Below are positions 1-63,966 of a DNA stretch of 64,000 bases, piece by piece (the stretch's first letter is position 1; each line of letters starts with the position of its first letter). The DNA is from Cyanidioschyzon merolae. Taxonomy: Eukaryota. The DNA lies in NCBI GenBank assembly GCA_000091205.1, contig AP006499.2, one strand, 5' to 3'. Under the pieces are notes generated by a model. That model searched no databases. It was not told the origin of the DNA and saw only the letters and a program-made list of their open reading frames with translations. Position numbers and translations under genes: made by a program.

Positions 1-871
1 CCCCCCATTCCCCCCATTAACGCGATGATCCCAGCGCGAATGCGTCTCTGATTTTGACGTCTATCAATCCATACTCGTTAGGGATATTCCTTCGGCGGTA
101 CGGTCTGGCCTCCTATGCATATGACTTGTTTTTCATCTAGCGTACCAGAGCCATTAGGGAATTACCTCCGGCGCTATGCTTTTTTTGGTCTTGCGGACTT
201 GCCCACTGGTAAGACCGGCGAAATTGCTGTATCGATACTGGTTTCGGGAAATCGTCCATCCCGCTGACCAGTCTCTCTCCCTTCCTCGCTTTTACTTTAT
301 CTCGGCTGTGCTGTTCGGTTCAGATTTTCTATCCTGCGTCGCGTTCCTGCCATGTGCATTCGCAGTGGCGTATCCGTCGCTGCTGCGGATGCATTTTGGA
401 AGGAGAGCAGCTCTGGCGTACCACGGATCGCGTTGGAAATGGTTTGCTTCATGCAACATAGGTTCAAGGACAATTTTTTTCTCGGGAGCCTTCAAGCTTT
501 TCTTGCAGACCTTTTGCCTGCGATAGCGTAAAGCGCTATACCATTCCTCTACCGCAATCTTGGTGACTCTTTAGCGTAATATACCCGCTCCTGGTTCAGG
601 ATCTCTTCTTTTGCCGAGGAGATGCTAAGGTGCGTCTTATCACTCGCTACTGTATTGTCTCTCTTATCAGAGGTTGGTAGAGTCTCGCTGCTTGCCGACC
701 CTCCGCCTAAATGTCACTGCTTGATTATACGCAAAGACTTCTTCCTTTTACTGTCTACAGTAGGTGACATTAGTACTTGCTATCCCGTTTGTGTATATTA
801 TTTTTTTGTACTTTCTATATCGTGCGCCCTGCTAACGCATTGCGAACTCTGTCCGCTACTTCACTCTACGT

Positions 872-3316
872 TCGTGTTGCCGATCATGAGAAACGCGGTA
901 TTGACCTGTTCTGGAGCGACTGCTCTTTCGGGGCCGCCTGCATTTGCGATCGAATTGTATCAAAGTATTGCTTTGGATTCAATGGCGTTTCTAACTTCCA
1001 GTATGTGTATTGTACTGATGTTCGCGTTCAAGGCAGAAGCGTCCGATATGTTGTTCACTTAAAAAATGTCAGAGTTTTGTAATTTGAGGTTGTGGGTTGT
1101 GGATGTCCTGGGTTGCCTAGTTTTGGAACAAACGAGACATAGTAGCTATTGCTGAGGACTAGGAAAAGAAGAGGAAGCAAAATGGGGAGGCGGTACGACG
1201 AAGGCTGCAATAGTGACATCTGTACGACTATATGGTTTTGTGATCCTGTCGTCTCCAACTTATCAATGATCCGTACAACTGAATGTTCCGAGATGCTTTC
1301 AGAAACCGCGTCGATTCGCACTCCAGGAATGCTTGTAAATCTTGTTTAGGAGTGACGCATTTGCATATCGAGCAGCATCGCGAAGTAACGCACATCGCAA
1401 AAGTGGTATTTCCGGAATAGTTTTTCAAAGAGAATTCTATCAACCACCTGATTTCTCCGAATAGGGAAGCATCAATGAGAAGAGAGCGGGCGGATGCCTA
1501 CCTCAAAATTTACGAGAAATTCCGCGACAACGGTGCTGGACACATGGGTGACGCAGGTATTTACGAATACAGGGCAATGAGTTGCCTCACGAACGCGTGG
1601 AACCAAAAAGTCTTAACCGTCGTCTTTTTCATGATAGGCGCCCCCATTGCGCTCTACGCGGGCCCGTTTCGCGAAGGGATGCGGCCAATCATCGATGTTA
1701 TCAGGAACGATCGCCAGCATGAACAGGAGACCATATCCGTCGACAAGGTCATATCATGCTGGTTAACGAATGACGCTTCTCTTATCCGCGCCACTAGTTT
1801 AAAGCATCGTTCGGTCTTGGGGCTTGTCAACCCATGAGAATTATTTTCAGATATGAGTAAAGACGAAGAGATTTGTTACACCCTCCTCATGTCCTACTCC
1901 ATGCTTTTGGACCGAGAACTCGAACGCAAGGCCGAAATGGAGCTGAATATGGTTTCAATGAATTGTTGGAAAAAATGGCACTGAAGAGCTTCTCCAGATG
2001 CGCTTTATTTCGGTCGATTATGCGAGTTCAAGTCACATTTTGTGAGTATCTACTCTAGATTTCTTTACGCCTTCAAGAAAGTGATTTATCCAGTGCCCGA
2101 TAGAAGCAACAAAGAGGTCACTGGCGAAGACCGGGACACCTACTGGAAGTATAACTTCGATTGCAAGCGTCCGATACCGGCCAAAAGAAGGTATTCACGG
2201 GGCCATCGATGACGACGGGGTATACATATTGGTTCACTTTCAGCGGTTGCAGGCACTTCGTCCTATCCCGTCTCCGTTACCGCCCTTGCCGAAGCACGAA
2301 AACAAGACGAAAGGCCACCGGACGTATCGTCTACACGAGAACGACTTCGTCGTCGGCCTTTACTCCTGGAATACTGACGTGATTACCATCGCTGTACCCA
2401 AGCGTTCGGAAGATTTTACTGAATGTAGCTTACGTCAGAAAGACATGCGTCTTTTTCAGGTTCTCGAGATCGAGGTACTACCGAGAAGCGGGAATCATGA
2501 ATCCGAGGGAGAAAATTGAGACTTTAAATCCAGCAGTGAAAAAGCATCTGGAAGTAATTAGCGAGGTGACGAGCCGACGAGCCGACTCTCAGGCCTGTCG
2601 AGAATTGAAGGAGGTTCGTTTTGTCCACTGGGATTCGCTGTTGAAGGAGTATAAAAGGCCCCGGTGGGCTAGTCTACCTATGAGTCCTTACTGTGGTAGG
2701 CAGCGTTCATTCGCGAACTTTTTCAATGCGTTGAACGCCTCCAGGAGAATGAGAGTCAGTGGCTCATAGTAGCCTGTGCAGCAGGGAGCAGGGCTCCAAA
2801 AAAGCGGACTACGCCAGCTTCGTCGACGAGGACATACAATGCGTGTGCACGGCGTTTTCTTACAATCCCTGTTGATGAGTTCCGAACATCGTGTACACAC
2901 CATGCGCTGGGCTGTATACTTCAGAGGGTGGAGATGGAAAAGTGTCAGCGCAGCCCTGGGGAATTAGCAAAGTACGGACCGCTGACGGAACTGCAAATGG
3001 AAAGAAGGGCGAGAGTTCCTGAACTACTTGCATTGGCAAGTACAACGAATGAGGGCAAGAAACGGATGGGGTTTGTAAATCGTGCCTTTGATGCCGCCAT
3101 CTATTTCAGAAGAAGTGCGGTGCTGGAGAAAGTACCTCCAGAGTCGACATGAGAGAACTTTGTTTGACAACCTCTCAAAGTCGAACTATATGAGACAAGA
3201 TTGGACGCAGGAGTAGGTGGCCGGTCCAAAAAGACGGGGGGCGTCTGCATAGCAATGGGAGACTTCTCGCTAGGGCGGGCTTCTCGCCAGTACTGTACAC
3301 TGCCGGCGTCGTTCGA
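872..3316 (+). mobile_element. Fanzor/TnpB-like element, copy A (degenerate, full length ~2.4 kb)
   Basis: Left-end similarity to copies B and C (…acg|ttcgtgttgccg…aacgcg…) and right-end similarity (…ccagtactgtacactgccggcgtcgttcga). Internal ORF fragments are homologous to the copy B and C proteins. Flanking sequences are unrelated, so this is a transposed copy rather than a segmental duplication. Confidence 0.55.
1475..3152 (+). pseudogene. Decayed Fanzor/TnpB-like nuclease gene of copy A (multiple frameshifts; RuvC-I GADP changed to GLYSW; RuvC-III NRDFNAA changed to NRAFDAA)
   Basis: ORF fragments 1475-1837, 2229-2519, 2497-2769 and 2928-3152 align to copy B segments (…NDFVVGLYSWNTDVITIAVPKRSED…, …[19 protein letters not shown]…, …FVNRAFDAAIYF…). 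The GTGAGT site is conserved at 2042-2047. Confidence 0.5.
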
Positions 3317-3375
3317 GTGTAAAAGGCGGTGGTGGCCTGGAAGCTCGGACTCGTCGTCGGTGAGCACCAGACGTT

Positions 3376-3412
3376 TCCGAACAGTAGCCGAACAGTAGCC
3401 GAACAGTAGCCG
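3376..3412. repeat. 11-bp tandem repeat (ccgaacagtag) x3, ~60 bp beyond the right end of element A
   Basis: Directly visible: ccgaacagtagccgaacagtagccgaacagtagcc. Confidence 0.8.
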
Positions 3413-32062: not shown

Positions 32063-33123
32063 AGCAGCATAAACTCAAGGTTGCAGCCCAACCTAGATGA
32101 TATCCCAAAGCAGACTTACAAAGTGTAACCAGTCCTACCACAGGGCCGGCACTTGCCCTCCCGAACACAACCCAGACCGAACAATACGAATTGATTGTAT
32201 AGAGCAGGCCGTTGGAGCCGACTACGAGGTTTGGCTTCGCCAATCGCGCGCGCCAGCTCAACGCGCATTCGGTTACCGCAAGTGCATCGCAGAAATCAGA
32301 CAAAGGCGACGTCGCACGGAGCACACTTCAAATGAAACGGCGTCGTGATTGGAGCAGTGCCAGGAGCGCCGCGCACACCTCAGATGAAACGCATTCGCAT
32401 GCGTGTGTGGCTGCGTGTGTTCGGATCGACGAGCGTCAGGCGCACTGCGATGCGCCTCAGTGCAGCAGCAGCAGCAACGAGATCGGCACAAGATTACGAA
32501 GCGATGCGTGCCGGCGCGCGCGTTGTTTCCGAGATCCCAGGCGTCGACGCGTCGATGGTGGTGGTGGTGGCAGGCGGGCGCCTGGATCTCCATGTATGTC
32601 AGGGCGGTACTGCGATGGGCAGTAGCGTCGGCACCAGCGACAGAGCCTATAGCAAGAGATTATTCTACGTGAGTTTCCGATCTACGAGACTTTATTTCAG
32701 CTGCAGCACGATGCGAACACGCATGTGCCAAGGCGGGGTCTTGGACACGTGTCCTTCATCGATCGGTGAGGCGTCTCGCGCGGTGCACGCATCTCGCGAA
32801 GTGAGCGCATCTGGGGGATCAGGCAGTCAATTGGAGCGACGCGCGTGTCGCCGTTGTTGAAGGGAAACGCGATGTTGATCTCTAGTGTGTTGTTCAGCTG
32901 TAAAAGTTGTATTTGCGTTGGAGTCGAACAAAAATATAGTTTTCAATTCATTTGTGTTTCAGCCCTCAAACAAGTCTAGTCAAGTGTTCTTTCGCAGTAT
33001 ATAACAGAAGGGTTCACAGAGCGTTCTTTCTCAAGAAACTGAAAAAAGAAAAGTTATGAAAAGCAAGTCCACGATCCTGGAGGCCCAGGGCCGCCGGCTG
33101 CCAGACAAAAAAAACGAAAAACA

Positions 33124-34026
33124 GTGCCGAGTCCAGAAGAAAAGGAAGAGAAGAAGAACCGAAATGGGGAGGCCCTACGTCGAAGGCTGCAAGAAAGACG
33201 ACAGTACAACGAGATGGTGGTGAAAGCCTTTCTTCTTGGACATATCAAGGATCCGTACAGGGAAAAGTTGCGAGACGCTATCGAAAAACTTGTCGACTCG
33301 TACTCCAAGAGTACTGTCAAGGCGTCGTCAGGACTGATGCATTTGGCGAGGGAGATGTACGAAGACGTGGCGCACATGGAAACGGTCGAGATTCCGGACG
33401 AGTTTTTCGACAAGACGTTTATTCGTCACCTGATGCTTGGTACAGCGGAAACGCGGAGGGAAAATGAGCGGGTTCACGCTCTTCACGAAAACTTCGCGGA
33501 GCTCCGCTTCGAGAGTAATCGATACAGGGGTGATCGGGATATTTAGACAAACGGAGCGAAAAAGCACATCACCAGTCTGAAGTACCATTTGACAGTGAAC
33601 ATCGAACGTTTCGTGATACGGGCCGTGTTTCCACTCTACTCGAGCCTATCTCGCAATGGAAAATGGGCGATTATCAATGACATCACGAACGATCGTAATC
33701 ATGAAGATGAGGTCGAATTTGTCGACAAGAAGGCGGCAAACCAGAGCACGAATGAAGCTTCTGAAATCCGTGCGGTTATACAAGAGCACCGTGCGGTACT
33801 AGGGTTGGCGAATCCAACAGAAAAGATATCAGAGCTGAAAAAAGATAAGGAAAGATGCTATCGCCTCGTCTTACGGTATTTCGCGTTTTCGTTCCGAGAA
33901 CTCGAACCCAAGACCGAAAAGCGTCTGAGTAGGGGAAAAATGCAGAGTCGGAGAGACGGAAGGTTTTTGCAATGGGGAAGCGCTTCAACGTGGTTCCAAT
34001 GTGCAACATTAAGTCACATTTTGTGA
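33124..34026 (+). CDS. Element-encoded N-terminal ORF (~300 codons), conserved in all three copies; single in-frame TAG at 33544 in copy B
   Basis: …EEKEEKKNRNGEALRRRLQERRQYNEMVV…LMHLAREMYEDVAHMETVEIPDEFFDKTF…HENFAELRFESNRYRGDRDI*…HLTVNIERFVIRAVFPLYSSLSRNGKWAIINDITNDRNHEDEVEFVDKK… aligns with copy C (57773-57112, minus strand) and copy A (1475-1837). Copy C has TAT/TAC (Tyr) where copy B has TAG. Function is unknown; it is possibly an N-terminal extension of the nuclease joined by splicing. Confidence 0.4.
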
Positions 34027-34183
34027 GTATCGACTCCGGCGTCCTTTACGGCATCATGAAAGAGATCTGTCGGAGTTCAGTGTCAGCAGGGAGGAATTCA
34101 CCGGCGAAAACCGGGAGACGTACTGGAGGATTAACTTCAATTTCAAACGTCTGGAAGCGAGCAAACAGCAGGTATTCACTGGA

Positions 34184-35473
34184 ATGATCGAAACCGATGG
34201 AGTAGCCTTGCGTGTACACTATCGGCGGTTGAAGAAAGATCGTCCAGTTCCGCCCTCGGCGAACCATGAAGATGAGAAGGAGGCGGATCCTGTGACGCAG
34301 GAGGTGGAGGATAACGACTTTATGGTTGGCGCGGCGAAGCATAAAGATGGGAAGGAGGCGGGTCCTGCGACGCAGGAGGTGGAGGATAACGACCTTGTCG
34401 TTGACGTAACGAAGGATGAAGATAAGAAGGAGGCGGATCCTGCGATGCAGGAGGTGGAGGATAGCCACATTGTCGTTAGCGCTACGAAGCATGAAGAAAA
34501 GAAGGAGGCGGGTCTTGAGACGCAGAAAGTGCATGATGACGACTTTGTCGTTGGCGCTGACCCCAGAAACACAAATATCATCACCATCGCAGCACCGAAG
34601 CGCGCAGAAGATAGTACTGACGGTAACTTGCGTCAGAAAGACATGCGTCTGCTGAGGTTCTCGAGAGCGAGATACGGCCGAGAATCGGGAATCATGAATG
34701 CAAGGAACAAAATCGAGACTTGGAATACAGGAATGAAGGATCTCCTGGAAGCTATGAGCAAGGTGACGAGCCGAGGAGCGGACTTTCATGCTTTTCGGGA
34801 GTTTATGCAAGTTCGTGTTGCTCATTGGGATGCACTGTGGGAGGAGTATACAAAGCCCCGGTGGGCTCGGTTGCGTATGAATTTGTACAGTGGGAAGCAG
34901 CGGGAGTTCGCGATCTTTTTCAATCACTTGAGTGCCCTCAAAGAGGACAAGACTCAAAGGCTCGTAGTAGCATACGGAGCAGGGCGCTGGGCGCCCAAGA
35001 AAGGTACTACGCCAGCTCCAACGACGAGGATGTACAAGTCGTGTGCACGGCGTTTTCTTACAATACCTGTAGATGAGTTTCGAATGTCCTACACACACCT
35101 CGAGCTGGTTTGTACACTTCAGAGGGTCGAGATGGAAAAGTGCCAGCCGAGCCCTGAGGAAATAGCAAAGTACGGACCGCTGACGGAGGAGCAAATGGAA
35201 AGGAGAGCGAAATTTCGTGGACTACTGGCACTGGTGAGTACAACTCCCAACGGCACGAATCGTATGGAGTTTGTTAACCGAGACTTTAACGCCGCTCTCA
35301 ATATAAGGAAATGTGCGGTGCTGGAGACGAGACCTCCAGAGTGGACAAGAGGGAACTTTTTTGGACAACCTCTTCAAGTTCAGTTATATGAGAAGAAGTT
35401 GGAAGCAGCAGTAGGTGGCCGGTCGAAAGAAACTGGAAGGCGTCTGTACGTCAGTTGGAGACTTCTTGGCTAG
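34184..35473 (+). CDS. TnpB/Fanzor-like RuvC nuclease core (429 codons; probable upstream exon 33972-34022 starting MGKRFNVVPMCNIKSHF)
   Basis: RuvC-I is …[23 protein letters not shown] (Asp at 34559-34561). RuvC-III is …[14 protein letters not shown] (35276-35305), exactly the TnpB/Cas12 pattern. A candidate relocated catalytic Glu lies in …[18 protein letters not shown]…, since the canonical RuvC-II position reads VVAYGAGRW. The stop falls 43 bp before the element right end. Note that the ORF-track Met at 34184 is an alternative (TTG) start; the real start is probably upstream. Confidence 0.6.
34280..34579 (+). repeat. 75-bp in-frame tandem repeat x4 inside the Fanzor-like ORF; the last unit encodes the genuine RuvC-I motif
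   Basis: Units begin at 34280, 34355, 34430 and 34505 (gaggcgg(a/g)tcctg(t/c)gacgcaggaggtggaggataacgac…). They encode [75 protein letters not shown] and [25 protein letters not shown]. Copy C has 2 units and copy A has 1. Confidence 0.8.
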
Positions 35474-35516
35474 GGCACGGTTGCCGCCACTACTGTACAC
35501 CGCTGGCGTCGTTCGA
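35330..35516 (+). ncRNA. Candidate omegaRNA (guide-RNA scaffold) region overlapping the 3' end of the Fanzor-like ORF and the element right end
   Basis: This segment is about as conserved at nucleotide level as the rest of the element across all three diverged copies (A 3150-3316; C 55518-55690, minus strand), through and beyond the ORF stop, to …ccactactgtacac(c/g)(g/a)ctggcg at the boundary. In TnpB and Fanzor systems the omegaRNA occupies this position. No expression data are available. Confidence 0.3.
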
Positions 35517-35534
35517 CTTTCGAACGGCGTTCGG

Positions 35535-37271
35535 ATGCGGCGGACTCTTCGGCAGTTTTCGCTCACCATGACACAGGTAGTCAAGAGAAGTGATGCGGAA
35601 ACCGAGTCCTCGTTGGGCGCATACGAGCGCGAGCGACTCGCGCGGATGGAACGGAATCGTATGCTCATGGAAAAGCTGGGTGTCACCTCACTTTCGAACC
35701 GGCTCGAGACGATCACGACTGTTCGGGAGCAAGCCCTCAAACCCATAGGTTACTCGAAACGCACGCCAAAGGCGGAGAAAAGGGCGCGCAATTCTGAAAA
35801 CGAAGTAGACCGTGGAGAGCTGGAGCCACGGCGTCGTTCGCTTCGTGTGCGGGGAATCGCCCCGGCCGGAGCTGGAACATCAGCAGAGGAACCGAAAAAT
35901 AGCCAGCTACAGCTGAAGGAAGAGGAAACATCAAGAGGTCCGTTTTTGGAAGACCAGACGTTCGCAGAGGTTGCCCTAGAAAACTATGGTGCCACTAGCG
36001 AAAGCTCCATGGTCAACGACGACTACGACCGCAGCGACGTAGACGACGTCGATGGTAACAAAGACGACGGAGACCAGAAGAGCTTGTGTACGCGGCGCGC
36101 CAGGTTGTTCCAGCGAGCCTGGTGCGGTGCAATGGCATGCACTTCCTTGTCGACAAGTGAGCATCTCGCGAAGGATCCAAGCCGTTTTCACCGCTGGGTG
36201 CTGGACGAGGCCTCGGGCTTCTTCAAGCTTGTTCCAGCACGTATTTATTCCGCAACCATGCATCCGCGTCTCGATGCATGGACCATGATGGTTGGCGACA
36301 AGGCAGGTCATGTGGGCCTTGCTGTTGTACCACGGGAACGCGTCGCAGAACATGCTGTTCAGGTGCTGTGTATGCGAGTTCACCGCGACACAACCGCTGG
36401 CATGGCACCACGTGCGGGTTCCGCCAACTCCCAACAGCTGCTAACAGTGTCCTACGACGGCAGTGCGCGCTTGCTAGATATCGAAAAACAAACAATTCAG
36501 ACAGTCCTCGTCGATGAGCGAGAACGAATTTTCAAGAGCATAGCGCTCAGTACAGAGAACGACAACGTCTTTTGGACCACTGCCAGCCATCGCTCACTTG
36601 GTGGATTCCTGGTTCGCCACGACCTTCGACAGAGCCAGAAATCGTTCGATGCTTTCGGTATCTCTGACAGCAGAGTCTACTCTGTTAGTTTACAGCATCA
36701 GGGCGCTGCAGGAGCAGTCCCCGGCCATGACGGTCTGCTGGCGGTCACGACGGCGCGAGATGGTGTTCTCATTTTTGATCAGCGTCGAATCGAGACTGGC
36801 GCTACTCGCCGATCAACATCAAAACCGCTTTTTGCTCTACCACACGAGCGCGCAACAACTGCAGCAACTTGGTCTCCGTCGGCGACGCGGCTGCTGACCA
36901 CCTGCTACGATGACTTGCTACGCATATGGCATTACGACGGCAGCGAGTGCTCGCTCGAACACCGCTTTGTACACAACAATCACACCGGTCGATGGGTTAC
37001 GCCTTTTGAGGCATGCTGGGACCCAGCTACGGACCACAAGATTTTTGCGTGTGGATCCATGAATCATAACCCGGTCCATGGCGTGGACCTCTTCCACGTG
37101 GAGCTCAACAAACGATCAGTCTGGAATCGGTTGACTGGCGAGCCCATGACGGCGATTGCGGCTGTCCTGGCCTGGCACCCGGCAGGGCATGCGCTCATAG
37201 GCGGGACTGCATCAGGCAGGGTATATCTATGGGGCGAAGCTCACGGATCTGAGGGCGTCCTCGCAGCGTGA
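35535..37271 (+). CDS. WD40-repeat protein, WDR76/CMR1-like (DNA-damage-associated)
   Basis: N-terminal motif LGAYERERLARMERNRMLMEKLGV resembles the conserved WDR76/Cmr1 N-terminal motif, followed by WD40-like repeats (…VSYDGSARLLDIEKQ…, …LTTCYDDLLRIWHYDG…). The first ATG outside the element is at 35535; 35568 is also possible. Confidence 0.55.
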   Translation: MRRTLRQFSLTMTQVVKRSDAETESSLGAYERERLARMERNRMLMEKLGVTSLSNRLETITTVREQALKPIGYSKRTPKAEKRARNSENEVDRGELEPRRRSLRVRGIAPAGAGTSAEEPKNSQLQLKEEETSRGPFLEDQTFAEVALENYGATSESSMVNDDYDRSDVDDVDGNKDDGDQKSLCTRRARLFQRAWCGAMACTSLSTSEHLAKDPSRFHRWVLDEASGFFKLVPARIYSATMHPRLDAWTMMVGDKAGHVGLAVVPRERVAEHAVQVLCMRVHRDTTAGMAPRAGSANSQQLLTVSYDGSARLLDIEKQTIQTVLVDERERIFKSIALSTENDNVFWTTASHRSLGGFLVRHDLRQSQKSFDAFGISDSRVYSVSLQHQGAAGAVPGHDGLLAVTTARDGVLIFDQRRIETGATRRSTSKPLFALPHERATTAATWSPSATRLLTTCYDDLLRIWHYDGSECSLEHRFVHNNHTGRWVTPFEACWDPATDHKIFACGSMNHNPVHGVDLFHVELNKRSVWNRLTGEPMTAIAAVLAWHPAGHALIGGTASGRVYLWGEAHGSEGVLAA

Positions 37272-46172: not shown

Positions 46173-47043
46173 AAGGAGCGTTAGACGTTCGCCAGCACAC
46201 CAGCGTCGCGAATGCTCCGAAACGGAACGCCGGAGCGGAGCGCGCCAGCCCGTCCAGATTCGGCAACGCGACGTCGGGCGAATCGCGCAGGCAGCAGCAC
46301 GGCGCGCCAGCGCCCAGAGGCCTCCGTATGGATGTGTTCCGATTTTGCTCAGATTTTACAGGATGTTGACACAGGCCAGCGTGCCGCCACGGGGTGGTGC
46401 GCGTGCGATCCGCGCGCGGTGAAGAAGCATCCAGCATACGACATCGGAGAACGCTGGCCTAAGTAAACGTTTTGTCAATGAAAAAAATCCAGCATTCGAC
46501 GCCCTATGTCCAAATTCTATAATCCATGCTTCCTTCCGAACGGACTGGCCGTTCCATACGCTCTATCGTGCGCCGAGTGCGTGCGTTGCTGCATCCGCAA
46601 TAGAGCATATATCGCAGGTGCTTGTGCAGCTCGGAGATAGAACGGCTCTTCGATACCACCTAGGGCGCTTCGGCTCGAGGTATCATGCATTCAACACCGG
46701 ATCGCGTCTCTCCATCATTCTGGGGGCCTGCAAGCTGCGCAGCGAGACTGACTGCCCACGACAGCGCGAAACGATACGCAAGGAGATAACTGCAACCGGG
46801 GCGATACCTGGATGCATGCTACCCGCCCCTAGTCTCAAAATGAACCGCGTTACGGATGAGTCGCTGAGAGCTGACTACAGCTCCCGCCACTGTAGAAGAA
46901 TACGGAGCGATAGCCCGGTAGATGCGTCCATCTCGGGGGATCTTACGCCTAGCAGCTAAACATTCGACAATACGGAACGCTTCCCGCCCCTTTTCAACGC
47001 TTACCACGAAGGTGTAACGAAAAAATGGTCGCGTTGCTCGTTC

Positions 47044-55461: not shown

Positions 55462-57773
55462 TTACTTAGCGATGAGCCGCCACGAACGATAAACGTCTTT
55501 CAAAAGAAAAACGCTGTCGCCAGTCGTGTACAGTAGTGGCGACCGGCGCCTTAGACAAACCGTCTCCAACTCAGTGTAGACGCCTCCCCGTCTTTTGGAC
55601 CGGCCACCTACTCCTGCTTCCATTTTTTTCTCATATAGTTCCACTTTGGGAGGTTGTCCAAAAAAATTGTCTCTTGGCAAGTCGTCTCCAGCACCGTACA
55701 TCTCCGTATACTGATAGCGGCATTAAAGTCACGATTCACAAACTCCATACGTTTCTTGCCATCACTGGTTGTGCTAACCAATGCAAGTAGTCCCCGAACT
55801 TTCGCCCTGCTTTCCATTTGCTCTTCCGTCAGCGGTCCATACTTTTTTATATCCTCAGGGCTCCTCTGGCACTTTTCCATATCGACCCTCTGAAGTGTAC
55901 ACCCCAGTTCATGGTGTGTATACGATGTTCAAATTTCATCTACAGGTATCGTAACGAAACGCCTTGCGCACTCCTTGATCGTTCCTGTCGTTGGAGCTGG
56001 CGTAGTCCCTTTTTTCGACGCCCAGCGCCCTGCTCCGTATGCTACAACCAGCCTCTGACTTTCATTCTCCTTGAGGGCACTCAACTCATTGAAAAAATTC
56101 GGAAATCCCCGCTGCTTCTCACAGTATAGATTCATCCGCAGACGAGCCGACCGGAGCTTTGTATACTCTTCCCAAAGTGCATCCCAATGCGCAACATGAA
56201 CTTCCAGGAACTCCCAGAACGCTTCAAAGTCCGCTCCACGGCTCGTCATCTCGCTCAGAGCTTCCAGGTGATCCTTCATTCCATGTCTCGACTTTCTTCC
56301 TCGCATTCATTATACCGGATTCTCGATGGTATCTTGCTCTCGAGAACCTCAAAAGACGCATGTCTTTCTGACGAAAGTTGCCCTCAGTACCATCTTCCGC
56401 ACGCTTCGGTGCTGCGATGGTGATGATATTTGTGTTTCCGGGGTCCGCGCCAACAACAAAGTCGTTCTCCTGCACTTTCTGTGTGGCAGGATCCGCGTCC
56501 TTCTTTTCTTCATGCTCAGCCGCGCCAACGACAAGATCGTTATCCTCCACCTCCTGCATCACAGGATCCTCCTCTTTGTTTTCTTCATCCATCGTTACGG
56601 GCGCAGCCGAGGGCGGAACTGGCCAATCTTTCTTCGACGGCCGATAGTGTACACACAAGGCTACTCCATCAGTTTCGATCATCCCAGTGAATACCTTTTG
56701 TTTGCTCACTTTGAGACTTTTGAAATCGAAGACGTTCTTCCGGTACGTCTCCCGGTTTTCGCCGGTGAATTCCCCCCCTGCTGACACTGAACCCCAGACT
56801 GATCTCCTTCATGATGCCGTAAAGGATTCTGGAATCGATGCTCACAAAATGTGACTTGATGTTGCACACTGGAACGGCACTGAAGCGCTTCCCCATTAGG
56901 AAAGTCTTCCGGTCTAACGACTCTTCATTTTTTCCTCACTCAGATCCATCTCCGCCTTGCGTTCGAGTTCTCGGTCCAAAAATACGAAATCGCGCAGAAT
57001 TAAGGGACCACATCTTTTTCTATGTCTTCTCATATCTGATACCTCTGCTGCTGGATTCGCCAGCCCCAAGACTGCACGTTGCTCTTGTATAGCCTCACGG
57101 ATTGCAGAAGCTTAATTCTTTCTCTTGCGTAATCTCTTCTTGTCAACGAACTCGATCTCATCTTGATACTTTCGATCGTTCGTGATGCCATTGATAATCG
57201 CCCATTTTCCATCGCGAGATAGGCCCGAGTAGAGTGCAAACATGGCGCCTATCATGAAACGTTCGAGGTTTACTGTCAAATGGTTCTTCAGATTCGTGAG
57301 GTACTTCATCGCCCCATAGTCGTAAATATCCCGGTCACCCCTGTATCGAGTACCCTCGAAGCGGAATTCCGCGAAGTTTTCGTGGAGGGCATCCACTAGC
57401 ACATTTTCCTTCAGCGCTTGCGCTGTACCAAGCATCAGTTGACGAGTCAAGGTCTTGTCGAAGAATTCTTCCGGAATCTCGACCGTTTCCATGTGCATCA
57501 CGTCGCCGTACATCTCCCTCGCCAAATGCATCAGCCCTGACGACGCCTTGACAATACTCTTCGAGTCTGAGTTGACACGTTTTTGATAGCATCTCGCAAG
57601 TTTTCCTTCGACGGATCCTTGATATATTTAAGAAGACCGGCGTTCACCACCATCTCGTCGTACTGTCGTCTTTCTTGCCGCCTTCGACGTAGCACCTCGC
57701 CCTTTTGCTTCTTCGCCTTTTCCTGTTCCTCTATATTCGGAACTGGTTCCGTTTTTCTCCGGCAGCTGTCCAC
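55462..57773 (-). pseudogene. Fanzor/TnpB-like gene of copy C, broken by several frameshifts
   Basis: Overlapping ORFs 57531-57773, 57112-57531, 56669-56896, 56224-56787, 55929-56306, 55608-55880 and 55462-55701 (all minus strand) together reconstruct the copy B protein (…[63 protein letters not shown]…, …[17 protein letters not shown]…). The overlaps indicate frameshifts rather than introns. Confidence 0.55.
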
Positions 57774-58022
57774 GCTACTCCTCCAGGATATTTTACTTCC
57801 TTTTCCATAACTTTCCTTTTTTCAGTATTTTTCGGAAAGAACGCTCTTCGAACGCTTCTGTTATAAACCGCGAAAAATCACTTGAATTATCTAAACCGAA
57901 GTTTGAGACACGATTGAACAGAAAACTATAGTTTGCTATGACTTGAACGCAAATGCAACTTGTACGGCAGAGCAAGATCATAAACATCAGGACCACGTTT
58001 CCCTCCAACGGCAACATGCGCG
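55518..58022 (-). mobile_element. Fanzor/TnpB-like element, copy C (pseudogenised, ~2.5 kb)
   Basis: The reverse complement of 57781-58022 aligns with the copy B left end (…acg|cgcatgttgccgttggagggaaacg…agttgcatttgcgtt…). The reverse complement of 55518-55690 aligns with the copy B right-end tail (…ccactactgtacacgactggcg). Confidence 0.6.
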
Positions 58023-59031
58023 TAGTATCTCATGCCTGCATGATCTCCCAGGTACGCGTATCGAACACACTATGTGGAACAAAGAACAGAGACGAACGAT
58101 TCACGAGCTTCGATATATATATATATTTCGTTCCCCCCTCTACGATGAACGTTACAAGGGGGAAAGATTTCGGTATTTTAGAAAGTTTACCTCCTAGGCG
58201 GAAGGTCCATAGAGCCGTACGAGTCTGCTAGGCTGGTGCTCGGTGTGCCTCTAAAGTGGCTGGTGCTTTAGCGAGACCTGAGCAACTCGTCTGCAACGCA
58301 GTTTATACTAGGTCTCGGATAGGGTATGCTGCGTTTGGGCGTCGCCCAGGTCCTAGTGGGCTCCTTGTATATCGCTTCGCGCTACCACAGGCAGAACGTC
58401 TCTCTGTACAGCTTGCAGGCTCCCAGAATGATAATTAACCGTGATTCCGTGTCAGGTGTAGGATTCTGCGAGCCGACGCCCTCAGTGGTATGGCAAAGTC
58501 GTTCTGTCTCCGTGCAGCGTCTGCCCCAGTGGTATACGCGCTACGGCGGGTGCAGCAAGGCAGGCACTCGGCACACGACAGAACATACGAAACGGCCAGT
58601 ATACCCGAGAGGAAGTATAAGTAGTGGAACTTGAATGTAGGTGCTTCATCACTGACGCTTTCCCGCAAGCCATGACCCATCCCGAATTCTGGGATGCATG
58701 GTCAATGTAATCGTTTTGTCATCTGGAAAAACAGCAACATGAACATCGACGACATGCGTCATGAGAAACGTGCCAAGGAATGCTAGTCATATACAAAGCG
58801 GTCATGCGAATCCAGAAATCATGGACATGGGCATCGCAATGCCGGTCCATGATCGACAGCCATGCGAACATGCATGACATGTCCATTGCAATGCGACAAT
58901 CTATGACATGCGGCGATGAAAGAGCGTGCAGCGAACGCGCGCGCCGATCGACATGGCGCGCCGCGATCGAGACGCGCGCGTCGTTCGCGCGGCGGTGACC
59001 TGTTTTCGGTAACGCACAAACGACGACGAGT

Positions 59032-59757: not shown

Positions 59758-62316
59758 GCTTGCGTATCGTTTGCGCTCTGACCAGTGGGCATCGTTGGAT
59801 TGTGGTGCTCGCAGCCGTGTCTGCCGCGCTGACTTATCTTCTCCTCCAGCAAAAGTGTAGATGTTGCTTAGGCGGCTGCAGAGAGCACGATCGTGAACAT
59901 AGGCACCGGTTCCTGAAAGGTCGTCGCTGTATCTGCGGGTCCTGGCTCCACTGTTGATGCAGCAGTCGCTGGGATTCCGGGCCGGGCGAGAAGATCTGAA
60001 AAGTGTACAAGCGACTTAGGCGCAAGGAGCAAGTTGCGTGGACGGATCGACGCGGTCTTCTTATCGAGAGAACGCGAGCAATCAGGGTACTGTCACTTGC
60101 GCTCGACCAAGACTGGCGGTTCGTTTCCCGCGTGGCATCTGTCGTGCTATCCAGGAGCCGCTGCGCGTCACCGTCACGCTCGGTAGGCTTGATGCGGTAT
60201 TCCGCAAACTGGACTGGTTTGAGCAGCATGACGTAACGTTGTGTGGATGCTGTCGCCTTGTTCGCGTTTCCAGGACACCTGCTTTGGGTAGTCCAGTCGA
60301 GTACACGTAGCTTTCTGATGCTACAAGCTCGATAGACCCGTTACCCACGCGTGCGCATTTTTGCAGCCTTTACTGGCACTCCACAGAGCGTATCTACTTC
60401 GTCGAACGTAGGCGACATGGCGCACGGGCCGAGCAAGTGATCATCTAGGTGCGATCAAAACGGTACATTGCCATCCACGACGCAAGAGCGCTTGGTAGAC
60501 GGCATGCAACCATACCAGCATTTATTGCATAGTGCATAATGCGCATCCAGCGTATATCACTGACGAGAGGCGGGCGTGTCGCAGAGAAGACACGCCAGCT
60601 ACGCAGGTCTGAGATTGCGATTGGAGCAGGGCGTTGCGAGCGGCGACGCTCAATGAAGAGCCAACGGAATCCAGTGGCTGGGCACTAACGATACCCCGCA
60701 CAACGCTGGTTGTACATGGAAACTATCTAGCATATACTCAGCAATAGCGAATAACAGAACGCCATCATGGTTCACAAACTGCACAGGAAAGTTGTTCGCG
60801 GTATATACATACGGCGCTCGTGCTGTACTGCGTTGCGGACCGCACCATACCAGTGCCTTGCTTCGGGCGAGAATTCTAAGGGACTCCTCTCGAGGCTTTT
60901 GGATTTTAGTCATAGAAAGTCTCGAACGTTTCAGCACAATGCCCAGACTGCGTATTAAACGATTTTCTCGTACATTCGCTCGAGCCGAAGCTGCTGCATG
61001 CCACGGATGCATGCCACATTTCCAAATGTTTACGAATACCCAGAGGTCTCGGTGCCGAACGTCAGCACACGCACTGTTGCCGGTGGACGCACACCAGCGC
61101 AAGCCGCTCACCATCGATTGCCACTCCACGTGACGTTCGGTCCGCGTACCGTGCAGTATACTGTGCACTCGTCTCTGTTTCATGCTCTTCTTCTCTAGCT
61201 GTCTCAACGGGCGCCCTCGCTGGTGATGCGTTCATGTCATCCTGGATGCATCGACGGGAATGGTAACGAATCGAATCCTGCATTCGGTGAACGCGCTCGT
61301 CGAAGGTACAGGTGGGCGCCAATGTGTGATGCAGCATCTCCAGCGCCACTGGACAGAACCAAACGACACGAATTATCCGTCATTGCCTTTCCAGACACAT
61401 TGAACAAGCTGATGAGTGCAAGCCTCGTGCCCGAGTATGCCAGGAACCGTTGGCAAGCCGAGCGCTGTCCCGGGCACGCTCTAAAGCGTGCGTTGATACC
61501 TTCCATCGGTGCCCTGTTTTCTGGGCGATTGGCCTCAGGCTGCGATGGGTACAACCCAGACACGGTGCGCTTCATTCAGCGTTCGAGACCGATCCGTATC
61601 TAATTTTTGAGGCTGGTCTGATCATTGGTGGCAGCAGCGAAATAAACTTTTTTTGCGACGGCTGAAATCGCTTGGCGAAGCGTCGAGGTATTCTGGAGAG
61701 CGGGGCTTCGAATCTCTGATCCTTTGATCGGGCCGTCTCGCATCCTCTGTCCAGCACATCCTTCATGCTGTCGCGTGATGCCCTAATCGAGACATGATAG
61801 GGAAATGGGAATAGATGGGAGCTCTGCGTCCGGAAACTCGTACGACCGGTTCGTGGACGGGATATGTCAAGGCGAGCGTAGCCAGGCACGTCTTCTTCGA
61901 GTAAGAAGCTATGCGACTTTTAAAGGTGTCTTGCACCTTTCAGTATTAGGGAAGCGAACGACTCTTGTATGGATTCATGGGCGCTAGAACGGTGTGTGAA
62001 AACAGAGCGAATGCCTTTGACAGGATTCAACCTGGGAGAACATGCTGGCACGACGTCGAGTCGGCGCCAAGCTTAGCTTTGTTCCCAATAACCGATTTTT
62101 AGTGGCCGAAAAAGACGGTGCATAAGAGCAGGACAGAAGAATACGGGAAGCAGACGCCGCAGAATGTGCTTCGGCCAAGGATCCGGGGTTGAATGATTCG
62201 CTTTGTTCGTGGATCCATGGGGAATCACAGGATTGCATGGTCATCAGGGCGGGTATTGTCGGGAAGCACGTTGATCGCTCTCGTTTACGAACAGCAGTGT
62301 TTTATTCTTCGAGTAC

Positions 62317-62742
62317 CTATGCACAGGTGTACCTTTTCTTCCGAATCAAAAGTATCATCGAGAGAAACGAAGACTGGTGTCTTCTGCTGTGTAAGCGTTC
62401 GCTCTTCACTGCGAAATCGATGGTGTCTTGTTTCACATGCAACGCTCTCCCATAGAAGCGCGGGATTTTCTCTGTCCACTTGTGTCCTTTCATCAGCTTC
62501 TGAATCAACGATATGGAAGATTCACATCCTATGGCTTCGTTGATCGTGCTATTTAGTAATTGTATGGAATAAATTGGATTGAACAGGTGAAAGTATATCA
62601 TATAGTGTTTGATTAGCTCTGGTTTAAGTGCACGTCGTTCATGTTGTGGACGACGAGAACAGTTGTTCATCCACCAGGTTACCGTAGAATGACTGACTTG
62701 CATATGGGCGGGTAATTCTTCGCAAGCTCGCAGAGACATCAT
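62317..62742 (-). mobile_element. Possible Tc1/mariner-like transposase N-terminal (helix-turn-helix) remnant inside an AT-rich island
   Basis: 141-codon ORF with …AHMQVSHSTVTWWMNNCSRRPQHERRALKPELIKHYMIYF…, resembling the paired-like HTH of Tc1/mariner transposases (…S.STV.RWL…GRP…L). No DDE/D domain is found downstream. Local GC content is clearly lower than the surroundings. Confidence 0.25.
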
Positions 62743-63444
62743 ATGGTCCTTTCGCGACCTTTTGCCCGTCTACAACATTCATTCCCTTTGTTCAATATCT
62801 GAGAGAAAAATAAACGAAATCAAGAAAGACGTCCTGGTACATGTATTCACGAATTCAGCGCTCTGAATATGACCGAGTTCATGGCGATGCAACCGCGTAT
62901 ACCACACCGTAGCTGCAGGTGGTGCAGGTGTTGTTCGCGTCTCCCGAGCGTCGCACGTTCTCAACCAATTCACATGCGAAGAGCGTCCTGTGTCGAGACG
63001 TGCGCTGCGCGCTTGCGACGCAACGTCCTTTCGATAGCGAGTCAGCGCTCGAGACGTTGATGAGTCGAGATGATGACGACCTTGTCGTTTGATTTTACTT
63101 GAATAAAGTAGGCTCGAATTAGAAATGTGCATTCATTCGCGAATGATGTTCGTCGTTCATCGCAGTGTGGAACCGACCATGCCTACTGCGACATGTCCAC
63201 GATGCCACCGATCCGGGGCAACACCCAGGTTCTAGACGACATAAATGGGCAGGTGCAGCACGCTATACCCCAGACCTGTTTCCACTCTGGTACAGTAGCC
63301 ATGAACCGGCACCCAAGGACGACGCTCAAGTGCTCCGTGCGTGAATCGGAGAACCCAGCTAAGCTCCGGCGGCGAGCGAGACCAACGCTAGATGGTTGAA
63401 CGTGTGGTGGCGATATCGCCACATCCCTCGTCTTTGGTGAGCCC

Positions 63445-63966
63445 TCAGATCCAATCCTCCTCGTTTTTCTCCACCTCTTTAAGCGCGATTTTTGCTGTCC
63501 AGTTCCCTTTCCAGTCAGTGCTTAGCTGAACGCGACCTTGTTTCGCGACCCCAATGCACTTACCTGCAGTATCGCAGGCAACCCCGAGTTTGATTGGCGC
63601 GAACTCCTCCGGCTGCCCCTTCAGTCGGAAGGTTTTAATGAGTCCCGCGCGCACCACTGCGTACCGGTAGCGCAGCTTGCTGTGTGAGGTTGCCAGAATA
63701 CCGTGCAAGCGGAAAGTCTCGCCAGAATCCAACACCCAATCCCGTTTGACAGCGACCCGTGAGCTGATCCGGTTATAGCAGTCGACTTTGCCACCCAGCG
63801 TAACCGTAGAAGGGAACCATGCGCCCCTTACGGAAAAGTCCTTCTGGTAGCTCGCCTGGAAGTAAGGGGAGCCCAGTCCGGGCGAAGCGATGCCCAGCAG
63901 CTGCAACACACCGCCGTCACGAAAGCAAAAGTCCCGTGATGCGACCGCATCCCAGTCACGGTTCAC
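63445..63966 (-). CDS. Hypothetical protein, probably 5'-truncated by the window edge; alternating hydrophobic pattern suggests beta-rich fold
   Basis: 173-codon ORF running into the window end. No family recognised. Confidence 0.2.
   Translation of the reverse strand: MNRDWDAVASRDFCFRDGGVLQLLGIASPGLGSPYFQASYQKDFSVRGAWFPSTVTLGGKVDCYNRISSRVAVKRDWVLDSGETFRLHGILATSHSKLRYRYAVVRAGLIKTFRLKGQPEEFAPIKLGVACDTAGKCIGVAKQGRVQLSTDWKGNWTAKIALKEVEKNEEDWI

Follow-up and report, generated by a model that had tools for sequence, protein, structure and literature searches.

In the characterised Fanzor1 systems, the scaffold of the guide RNA (omegaRNA) is encoded between the 3' end of the nuclease open reading frame (ORF) and the right end of the element, or overlaps them, and the guide is read from the flank (PMC10432273, PMC11423790). 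The SpuFz1 locus has a 75-nt scaffold that lies after the stop codon and before the 3' inverted repeat, followed by a variable guide of 14-15 nt, and 'ghost' omegaRNA loci have been described in S. punctatus; the omegaRNA of GtFz1 overlaps 17 codons of its ORF, at a locus without inverted repeats (PMC10432273). Fanzor1 omegaRNAs measure 75-150 nt in total and have a 7-bp first stem-loop (SL1) and a variable region before the guide (PMC11423790). A survey has reported the presence of Fanzors in Rhodophyta and the association of Fanzor1 with Mariner/Tc1, among other transposons (PMC10530073). A literature search joining Fanzor with cyanidialean names returned no paper with both. Here we describe the 3' tail of a repeated Fanzor1 element in a 64-kb stretch of the genome of the cyanidiophycean red alga Cyanidioschyzon merolae (contig AP006499.2; the whole stretch is hereafter the window), in which positions 35330-35516 had been singled out in a preliminary description as a candidate omegaRNA scaffold.

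Comparison of this interval with its homologues indicates that it is probably the relic of the omegaRNA-scaffold region of a Fanzor1 element. What carries this reading is the identity of the adjacent gene as Fanzor1, the match of the tail in position, strand and size to known Fanzor1 omegaRNAs, and a sharp right edge at ~35531-35543 across 68 copies. Further support comes from an alternation of conserved blocks and variable loops, an excess of folding over shuffled sequences, its bias to the plus strand, three versions of a terminal hairpin, free-standing (solo) copies of the end of the tail, and the earlier stop codon of outgroup genes. The scaffold itself is likely to be ~100-135 nt long, running from 35406 or 35434 to 35531, with the guide starting at ~35532. 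The flagged interval is the last part of copy B of a repeat that is present three times in the window, with pairwise identities of 60-92% along the whole element:

Copy A, 870-3340, plus strand: heavily decayed; right end at ~3316-3340, tail at 3132-3340.
Copy B, 32165-35543, plus strand: a 'head' of ~640 nt, then a 5' leader, the Fanzor1 gene in disrupted form and, last, the 3' tail; left end approximate.
Copy C, 55490-58690, minus strand: decayed; a type 2 terminal hairpin at 55492-55513 and a right end at ~55490.

Homology of copy A to copy C reaches left to ~201, and the left limit of copy B depends on the partner, with head-type homology beginning at ~32165-32218 and other homology at ~32577 or 32845. 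The right limit of copy B was set by the diversity profile of 68 copies, for which a metagenome scan gave more than 365 related loci (designated here by L numbers); 80 of these were taken, yielding 68 distinct tails that could be aligned.

The ORF next to the tail is a bona fide Fanzor1 nuclease, whose gene in copy B is broken into fragments and includes a run of repeats:

Fanzor1 pseudogene, 33124-35473, plus strand: ORF fragments 33124-33546, 33589-34026 and 34184-35473, from the ORF list and its translation.
Acidic tandem repeats, 34260-34556, plus strand: units of 75 nt (25 codons), from a repeat search and protein alignment.

ORF 34184-35473 carries the motifs DPRNTN (RuvC-I) and VDEFRM (RuvC-II) and, at 35276-35305, RuvC-III, which in the family profile align to DPGRRD, IDEFRTS and NRDQAA of PpFz1. 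It belongs to a large family of 600-700-aa proteins, DUF8286 (PF26935). A profile built from 49 full-length homologues matches Parasitella PpFz1 (9cf0) at E=1.5e-17, Spizellomyces SpuFz1 (8gkh) at 2.8e-10 and Guillardia GtFz1 (9cer) at 2.5e-3. Fanzor1 was reached only by this profile: a single-sequence phmmer search of the ORF against the PDB found nothing, and neither the ORF nor the full-length homologues had useful matches in Pfam or NCBIfam. The AlphaFold2 model of an intact relative, P0113 (pLDDT 88), matched SpuFz 9ceu in Foldseek at E=7e-18, with TM scores of 0.64/0.71 and a protein identity of ~14%. The top seven matches of this model were all Fanzor1 (E 7e-18 to 3e-15), with Cas12f next, and its TM scores were 0.64-0.72 for four SpuFz entries and 0.51-0.58 for GtFz and PpFz. 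Because the adjacent ORF is Fanzor1, the position of an omegaRNA can be assigned to the tail, and the earlier argument from location, that a Fanzor scaffold is encoded exactly here, agrees with the characterised systems (PMC10432273, PMC11423790).

An in-frame TAG near 33544 interrupts the gene of copy B. Since the interruption lies upstream, copy B cannot make the full protein; RNA from this copy could act only in trans, with the protein of an intact copy, and its tail would otherwise be a relic. Among ~57 family copies an uninterrupted Fanzor1 frame was found only in L007 (L007:1361-3700, contig Ga0078972_1000527), where 778 codons are open and 722 aa follow from the first Met; this apparently intact frame makes L007 the best candidate for an active gene. 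The acidic 25-aa repeats, three to four units directly before RuvC-I, differ widely in copy number within the family and are not present in copy A or in the outgroups. We note that the DUF8286 consensus is without the CxxC...CxxC zinc-ribbon cysteines usual in the TNB domains of TnpB and Fanzor proteins, and reads ...VDEFRTTKVHxxD...RGLLWC... between the RuvC-II and RuvC-III motifs; OrfB_Zn_ribbon (Pfam) was matched once among 120 listed homologues, in P0238.

The preliminary description had the three copies alignable base for base to an element end at 35516, with complete divergence immediately after. The copies do align in this way from well upstream of 35330 through the TAG stop codon to ...CTGGCG (a BLAST search with the last 287 nt of copy B matched A and C at 77% identity, E ~1e-51), and unrelated flank does follow, but 35516 is not the end of the element. 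A terminal hairpin, which most of the 68 distinct copies carry, has this base as the last of its 5' arm. A, B and C appeared to diverge at this base because their hairpin versions differ; homology runs on through the hairpin and fades at ~35540-35543:

Terminal hairpin, 35505-35531, plus strand: arms 35505-35516 and 35520-35531, loop CTT at 35517-35519.
Loosely conserved GT-rich stretch, 35532-35550, plus strand: family consensus GTTGATGGTGYG, grading into unrelated flank.

The hairpin has 10-12 bp, G.U pairs included, and its exact motif lies at 35510-35529. It exists in type 1 form, TCGTTCGA-CTT-TCGAACGGCG, in ~45 tails, and in type 2 form, ACGTTTTTC-TTTT-GAAAGACGT, in ~15 tails, that of copy C among them; of 22 positions, 6 distinguish the two types, which pair in registers shifted against each other. 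A third, perfect version occurs in L058 alone. The idea that the hairpin might be a pre-existing target site was rejected: it never occurs without the upstream scaffold motif in 544 kb, and it is for this reason assigned to the element. Diversity rises from ~0.25 to 0.71 at the passage into unrelated flank; conservation after the hairpin is 0.4-0.7 for ~12 nt and random beyond, and diversity from 35532 is 0.54-0.76. The right end of copy B therefore belongs near 35540, and the boundary between scaffold and guide should be shifted from 35516 to ~35531-35543. By analogy with SpuFz1 (PMC10432273), the sequence from 35532 onward would be the position expected for a guide.

Within these limits, the following features can be distinguished in the tail of copy B:

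C-terminal ORF extension, 35331-35470, plus strand: ~47 codons, in frame, the frame being kept in many homologues.
Candidate long-range helix, 5' strand, 35406-35419, plus strand: consensus CAGTAGTnGGTGGC, with a bulge at 35413.
Stop codon TAG, 35471-35473, plus strand: within a conserved CTAGGG motif.
Small G+C hairpin, 35474-35487, plus strand: GGCA-CGGT-TGCC in copy B, with a hypervariable loop.
Most conserved non-coding block, 35485-35500, plus strand: CGCCACTACTGTACAC; mean diversity ~0.13, against 0.29 at 4-fold degenerate sites.
Core module of ~100 nt, 35434-35531, plus strand: the best candidate for the omegaRNA scaffold, from its solo copies, fold z-scores and strand asymmetry.

It follows that the interval 35330-35516, earlier described as non-coding, is largely the in-frame C-terminal end of ORF 34184-35473; ~35 nt of it (35474-35516) lie past the stop codon, and ~70 nt separate the stop codon from the true end. 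The last ~21 codons (35407-35470) are without counterpart in outgroup Fanzor1 proteins. These end in ...RVLKR*, and 170-220 nt of non-coding sequence then reach the right end of their elements. Since the outgroup ORFs stop earlier, the extra ~21 codons of the window ORF read into a tail that is non-coding elsewhere, and 35331-35470 may possibly form the 5' part of the scaffold. In the minimum free energy (MFE) fold of the consensus and of copy B alike, 35406-35419 pairs with 35483-35495, giving 13 bp and one bulge and enclosing smaller hairpins. Diversity of the 5' strand is low, with hardly any variation at its 4-fold sites 35407, 35416 and 35419; the 3' strand falls for the most part in the block 35485-35500, whose CGCCACTACTGTACAC motif occurs in the window in the three tails only, apart from two matches with 3 mismatches. 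The small G+C hairpin has at least five stem and loop versions, appearing elsewhere as GGCGGG-NNN-CTCGCC, GGCG-CCGGT-CGCC, GGCGCG-GGTCA-CGCGCC and GCGCC-GGTT-GGCGC; its per-site diversity is 0.00-0.06 at 35474-35476 (GGC) and 0.35-0.65 at 35478-35484.

The end of the tail also exists by itself. Solo copies of the last ~105 nt, corresponding to 35434-35540 with the hairpin and GT-rich continuation included, are found in seven related loci, in direct orientation and 3.3-3.6 kb upstream of the right end of the element, where the sequence preceding them is not an ORF tail (BLAST and nhmmer):

L039:289-392, L016:284-387, L063:278-381, L043:315-402, L062:316-403 and L056:295-393: solo copies, E 1e-17 to 4e-27.
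L012:1-74: partial solo copy, E 2e-7.

These copies mark the last ~100 nt as a unit, and they resemble the 'ghost' omegaRNA loci. The solo modules are embedded in sequence that is conserved among their loci. In the outgroup locus L002, which holds P0113, a 30-nt right end (...GAGTATAC) is present at both L002:1-30 and L002:2293-2322; the upstream direct copy lies ~90 nt before the Fanzor start codon and parallels the solo modules.

Sequence diversity across the 68 copies was distributed as follows:

ORF body, codon positions 1, 2 and 3: 0.12, 0.09 and 0.25.
ORF body, 4-fold degenerate sites (n=111): 0.292.
Coding tail 35331-35470, codon positions 1, 2 and 3: 0.21, 0.17 and 0.23.
Non-coding 35474-35508: 0.266.

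From the codon pattern of the ORF body, much of the divergence among copies arose under protein selection. In the coding tail this periodicity is almost lost, and diversity over all sites, at 0.205, is lower than that of 4-fold sites (p=6e-5). The latter value, together with a frame that in many homologues runs uninterrupted as far as the same CTAG stop, could be taken to mean that 35331-35470 encodes a conserved basic peptide (...GGRSKKAGRRLHVSWRLL), and that the hairpin, with the T-rich sequence after it, is a 3'-end, terminator or stability element of the Fanzor mRNA. We regard this as very improbable: the near loss of periodicity sets the tail apart from the body, the extension is not found in the outgroup proteins, and the module occurs without any ORF in the seven loci with solo copies. 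Past the stop codon, blocks with a diversity of ~0.04-0.13 (35474-35476 and 35485-35500) alternate with positions at 0.35-0.68 between and after them, a pattern that stems with free loops would plausibly give, the blocks having been picked post hoc.

Folding of the tail is in agreement with a structured RNA. The last 140 nt have a mean predicted free energy of -52.5 kcal/mol, compared with -30 to -38 kcal/mol for ORF segments of equal length, and a mean z-score against shuffled sequences of -1.77, compared with +0.1 to -0.6 (about -0.3) for the ORF segments; z is below -2 in half of the copies' tails but in only 4% of ORF segments. The plus strand of the tail is more stable than the minus strand (-50.3 versus -38.7 kcal/mol, p=3e-6; z -1.62 versus -0.92). 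The predicted folds include a guide-adjacent hairpin with a 7-bp core and the small G+C hairpin, and no helix in them could be equated with SL1. RNA-level selection on the tail is plausible. Of the two checks originally proposed for structure, folding supports stability, but the search for compensatory substitutions gave no convincing covariation.

That result and several others weigh against a scaffold here. RNAalifold on the 68 tails found no consensus structure (-0.06 kcal/mol). On the MFE structure, 80.3% of pairs were paired, compared with 79.7% in shuffles, and 27 pairs were doubly changed, compared with 27.7. Minor variants at consensus Watson-Crick pairs were G.U in 274 cases and A.C in 277, a ratio of ~1:1, as expected for decay without selection. 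By inspection, single changes in the candidate helices were mostly disruptive and uncompensated, and the long-range helix showed none that restore pairing; the versions of the small G+C hairpin and of the terminal hairpin are exceptions, which are suggestive only. No Rfam 15 family matched the window at gathering score, or 35150-35700 at E up to 5, and nhmmer with the tail models found no significant nucleotide homology in the outgroup loci, whose proteins are 48-64% identical. All three window copies are interrupted by stops and frameshifts, and hence are pseudogenes. Conservation, which had been read as a sign of RNA-level selection, does not bear that reading overall. In 60-nt windows, pairwise identities among A, B and C of 0.72-0.82 for the tail compare with 0.70-0.92 for the body, so that the tail is not more conserved than the rest of the element; the non-coding 35474-35508 does not differ from 4-fold sites (0.266 versus 0.292, p=0.2), nor is it more conserved than third codon positions (0.25-0.28). 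As far as overall conservation goes, this is the outcome that the preliminary description had itself named as refuting. Finally, signals for transposition at the DNA level would explain the blocks and the hairpin equally well. An all-against-all scan of column covariation gave mostly one-sided G-C/G-U noise and subfamily linkage, and comparison of subfamily consensuses was abandoned, there being no tight subfamilies and only orthologous pairs and trios that cluster. Since most helix changes are uncompensated, a covariance model fitted to the module would bring in bias and no evidence.

Tail identity equal to that of the body, non-coding diversity at the level of 4-fold sites, the lack of covariation, the 1:1 ratio of G.U to A.C variants and the pseudogene state of the copies together make up the case for neutral hitch-hiking, in which recent shared ancestry of the copies explains their alignment and the tail is the 3' untranslated region or end of a decaying repeat, with no function of its own. 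We consider this improbable. It does not account for the block-and-loop pattern within ~35 non-coding nt, for the near invariance of 4-fold sites 35407, 35416 and 35419, or for a fold stability that is strand-specific and far above that of ORF segments and shuffles; nor does it lead one to expect three different sequences that all make a hairpin at one place, or a module duplicated alone. Fold excess, strand bias, hairpin variants and solo modules make pure hitch-hiking the less likely account. The preliminary proposal of an omegaRNA scaffold holds in its location and gains support from the block-and-loop pattern, fold excess, strand bias, hairpin versions and solo copies, but its extent of 35330-35516 and its argument from conservation do not hold.

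The main rival explanation is that the conserved block, the hairpin and the next ~12 nt are cis-acting transposase sites of a DNA-level transposon end, and not primarily RNA. The enzyme could be of HUH/rolling-circle type, reading the hairpin, or a Tc1/IS630-type DDE transposase acting in trans, and such an end would be compatible with an overlapping omegaRNA, as the SpuFz1 scaffold spans the inverted repeat. The sharp boundary, the hairpin 10-14 nt from the end and the absence of terminal inverted repeats (TIRs; none of at least 16 nt was found between the ends of B, C, L083 and L039) would all suit it, as would the 5' regions, which are mosaic or variable, various 'heads' standing in place of DDE_3 in other family copies. 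Relatives give it support as well. The nearest outgroup relatives, L085-L090 and L002 (48-64% protein identity), have right ends that finish ...GRGTATA, with 28-nt TIRs in L090; in L085-L090, though not in L002, a gene or remnant of a DDE_3 (Tc1/IS630-type) transposase lies directly upstream of Fanzor, and the same ancestral arrangement is kept as a DDE_3 remnant at L068:408-1203, in a member of the window family. Moreover, both Mariner/Tc1 and Helitron contexts are known for Fanzor1 (PMC10530073). We nevertheless think this explanation rather unlikely. No HUH/Rep gene and no CTRR-type terminus was seen, in an HUH search that was not genome-wide; an inverted copy of the right end was not found at the left end; the apparent resemblance of the left end to the right end lacked significance, as did any left-end hairpin. 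The terminal hairpin, relying partly on G.U pairs and being stabler on the plus strand, fits RNA better. A direct-repeat relation of the left and right ends in head-type copies, plausible by eye, failed a shuffle test and nhmmer. When an empty site was sought by way of orthologues of the WD40 gene next to the element, the only relatives that came up were 99% identical, with the same insertion, or 59% identical.

Neither the DDE_3 gene nor TIRs exist in A, B and C, and the same is true of nearly all members of the family. The lineage has shed the DDE_3 transposase and inverted repeats of its Tc1/mariner-type ancestors, and even so numbers hundreds of copies in compact red-algal genomes; it may have spread by means of the Fanzor-omegaRNA pair itself and not of a classical transposase. 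This mode of spread we offer as speculation, and think it quite unlikely; it would proceed by RNA-guided homing, or by recombination in which solo modules are used as landing pads, and similarity among flanks would be the footprint of guide-directed target choice. A DDE_3 fragment is also present ~240 nt downstream of the right end of the Fanzor element in L072/L079:3864-4199. In the window, a decayed DDE_3 remnant at 62262-62733 on the minus strand (tblastn E ~1e-7 to the L086 DDE_3 protein) lies between a possible 18-nt inverted-repeat pair, 61348-61365 and 63486-63503 (region 61348-63503).

If the tail of this element is the scaffold region, transcription on the ORF strand would pass through the end of the Fanzor gene, and the last ~100-135 nt would fold into a possible long-range helix, the small G+C hairpin, the conserved CCACTACTGTACAC and the terminal hairpin. 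The following ~12-20 nt of flank, from ~35532, would serve as the guide, and the Fanzor1 protein would bind the scaffold and cut guide-matching DNA beside a target-adjacent motif. Transcription, processing, protein binding and guide use are suggested by analogy with SpuFz1, GtFz1 and PpFz1.

Orthologues of copy B, sharing the same insertion, were recovered from three metagenomes (L001, L003 and L049). They have no changes in 35474-35543, compared with 1-3% in the element body, a difference that over 70 sites is not significant. Their element interior is 1-3% diverged, while the flanking gene and left flank are 0.2-0.9% diverged; gene conversion among copies, repeat-targeted mutation or chimeric assembly of metagenome repeats are possible causes of the higher interior divergence. 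A lone 'head' fragment at window positions 46562-47003 (plus strand) is 66% identical to L083:8488-8927 and has no Fanzor gene attached, and similar lone or inverted head fragments are present in L013, L014, L046-L048 and L050. A tandem repeat, (CCGAACAGTAG) x3, occupies 3376-3410, ~40-60 nt past the right end of copy A. Downstream of copy B, a WDR76-like host gene (ATG at 35568; region 35415-37271) begins ~25 nt past the right end of the element; its identity is 59% to the Cyanidiococcus yangmingshanensis counterpart and 44% to the one in Cyanidium caldarium. Gene calling of the prokaryotic kind, with a GTG start at 35415 and 618 aa, wrongly stretches this gene into the Fanzor tail. The neighbouring genes of the window are typical of a compact, intron-poor eukaryote.

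For annotation, the practical outcome is that the window holds three decayed Fanzor1 copies, with the right end of copy B near 35540, just upstream of the WDR76-like gene. If the module is indeed an omegaRNA, it would provide a Fanzor1 protein and guide that belong together and come from a thermo-acidophilic red alga, with an apparently intact gene in L007, a natural case of an ORF that reads into the scaffold, and a lineage that has multiplied despite the loss of its transposase and inverted repeats. What Fanzors contribute to the elements that carry them is an open question, and multiplication without a transposase is relevant to it.

One of the systems with which this locus can be compared is the ISDra2 TnpB omegaRNA (IS200/IS605). 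There too the nuclease gene's 3' end and the right end give rise to the guide RNA, which overlaps the ORF and takes its guide from the flank, and the right end has a hairpin about 10 nt from the terminus. ISDra2, however, is bacterial, has a Y1 HUH TnpA as partner and carries similar hairpins at both ends, whereas neither TnpA nor a match to the hairpin at the left end was found in the window family. The Mariner/Tc1-associated Fanzor1 elements (the Fanzor1c association, PMC10530073), taken together with the nearest relatives L085-L090 and L002, share DUF8286/PF26935 at 48-64% identity and the DDE_3 gene directly upstream of Fanzor, which L068 has kept in the window family. They differ in their ...GRGTATA ends and the 28-nt TIRs of L090, where the window family has a hairpin end and has lost both transposase gene and TIRs, and their tails cannot be aligned to it at the nucleotide level.

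GtFz1 (9CER; PMC10432273, PMC11423790) is, like the window family, an algal Fanzor1 at a locus without inverted repeats or an associated transposase; its TNB/zinc domain is reduced, and its 150-nt omegaRNA lies over the C-terminal codons of the ORF. In sequence the two are only remotely related (profile E=2.5e-3), GtFz1 has an overlap of 17 codons, and its RNA has been shown experimentally, while that of the window is a prediction from sequence. SpuFz1 (8GKH; PMC10432273) resembles the window family as a single-ORF Fanzor1 element of 2-3 kb in many copies, with the scaffold occupying the 3' end as far as the right end, a guide taken from short variable flank, gene-free scaffold copies and a matching protein fold (TM 0.64-0.71), although protein identity is only ~14%. 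In contrast to the window family, in which none were found, SpuFz1 has 30-nt inverted repeats; its scaffold lies wholly past the stop codon, whereas the window ORF reads ~21-47 codons into the candidate scaffold and its element ends in a hairpin. Solo modules of the window family lie inside longer versions of the element and are not separate ghost elements bounded by inverted repeats. In protein, position, strand, size and boundary behaviour, the window case fits known Fanzor1 systems.

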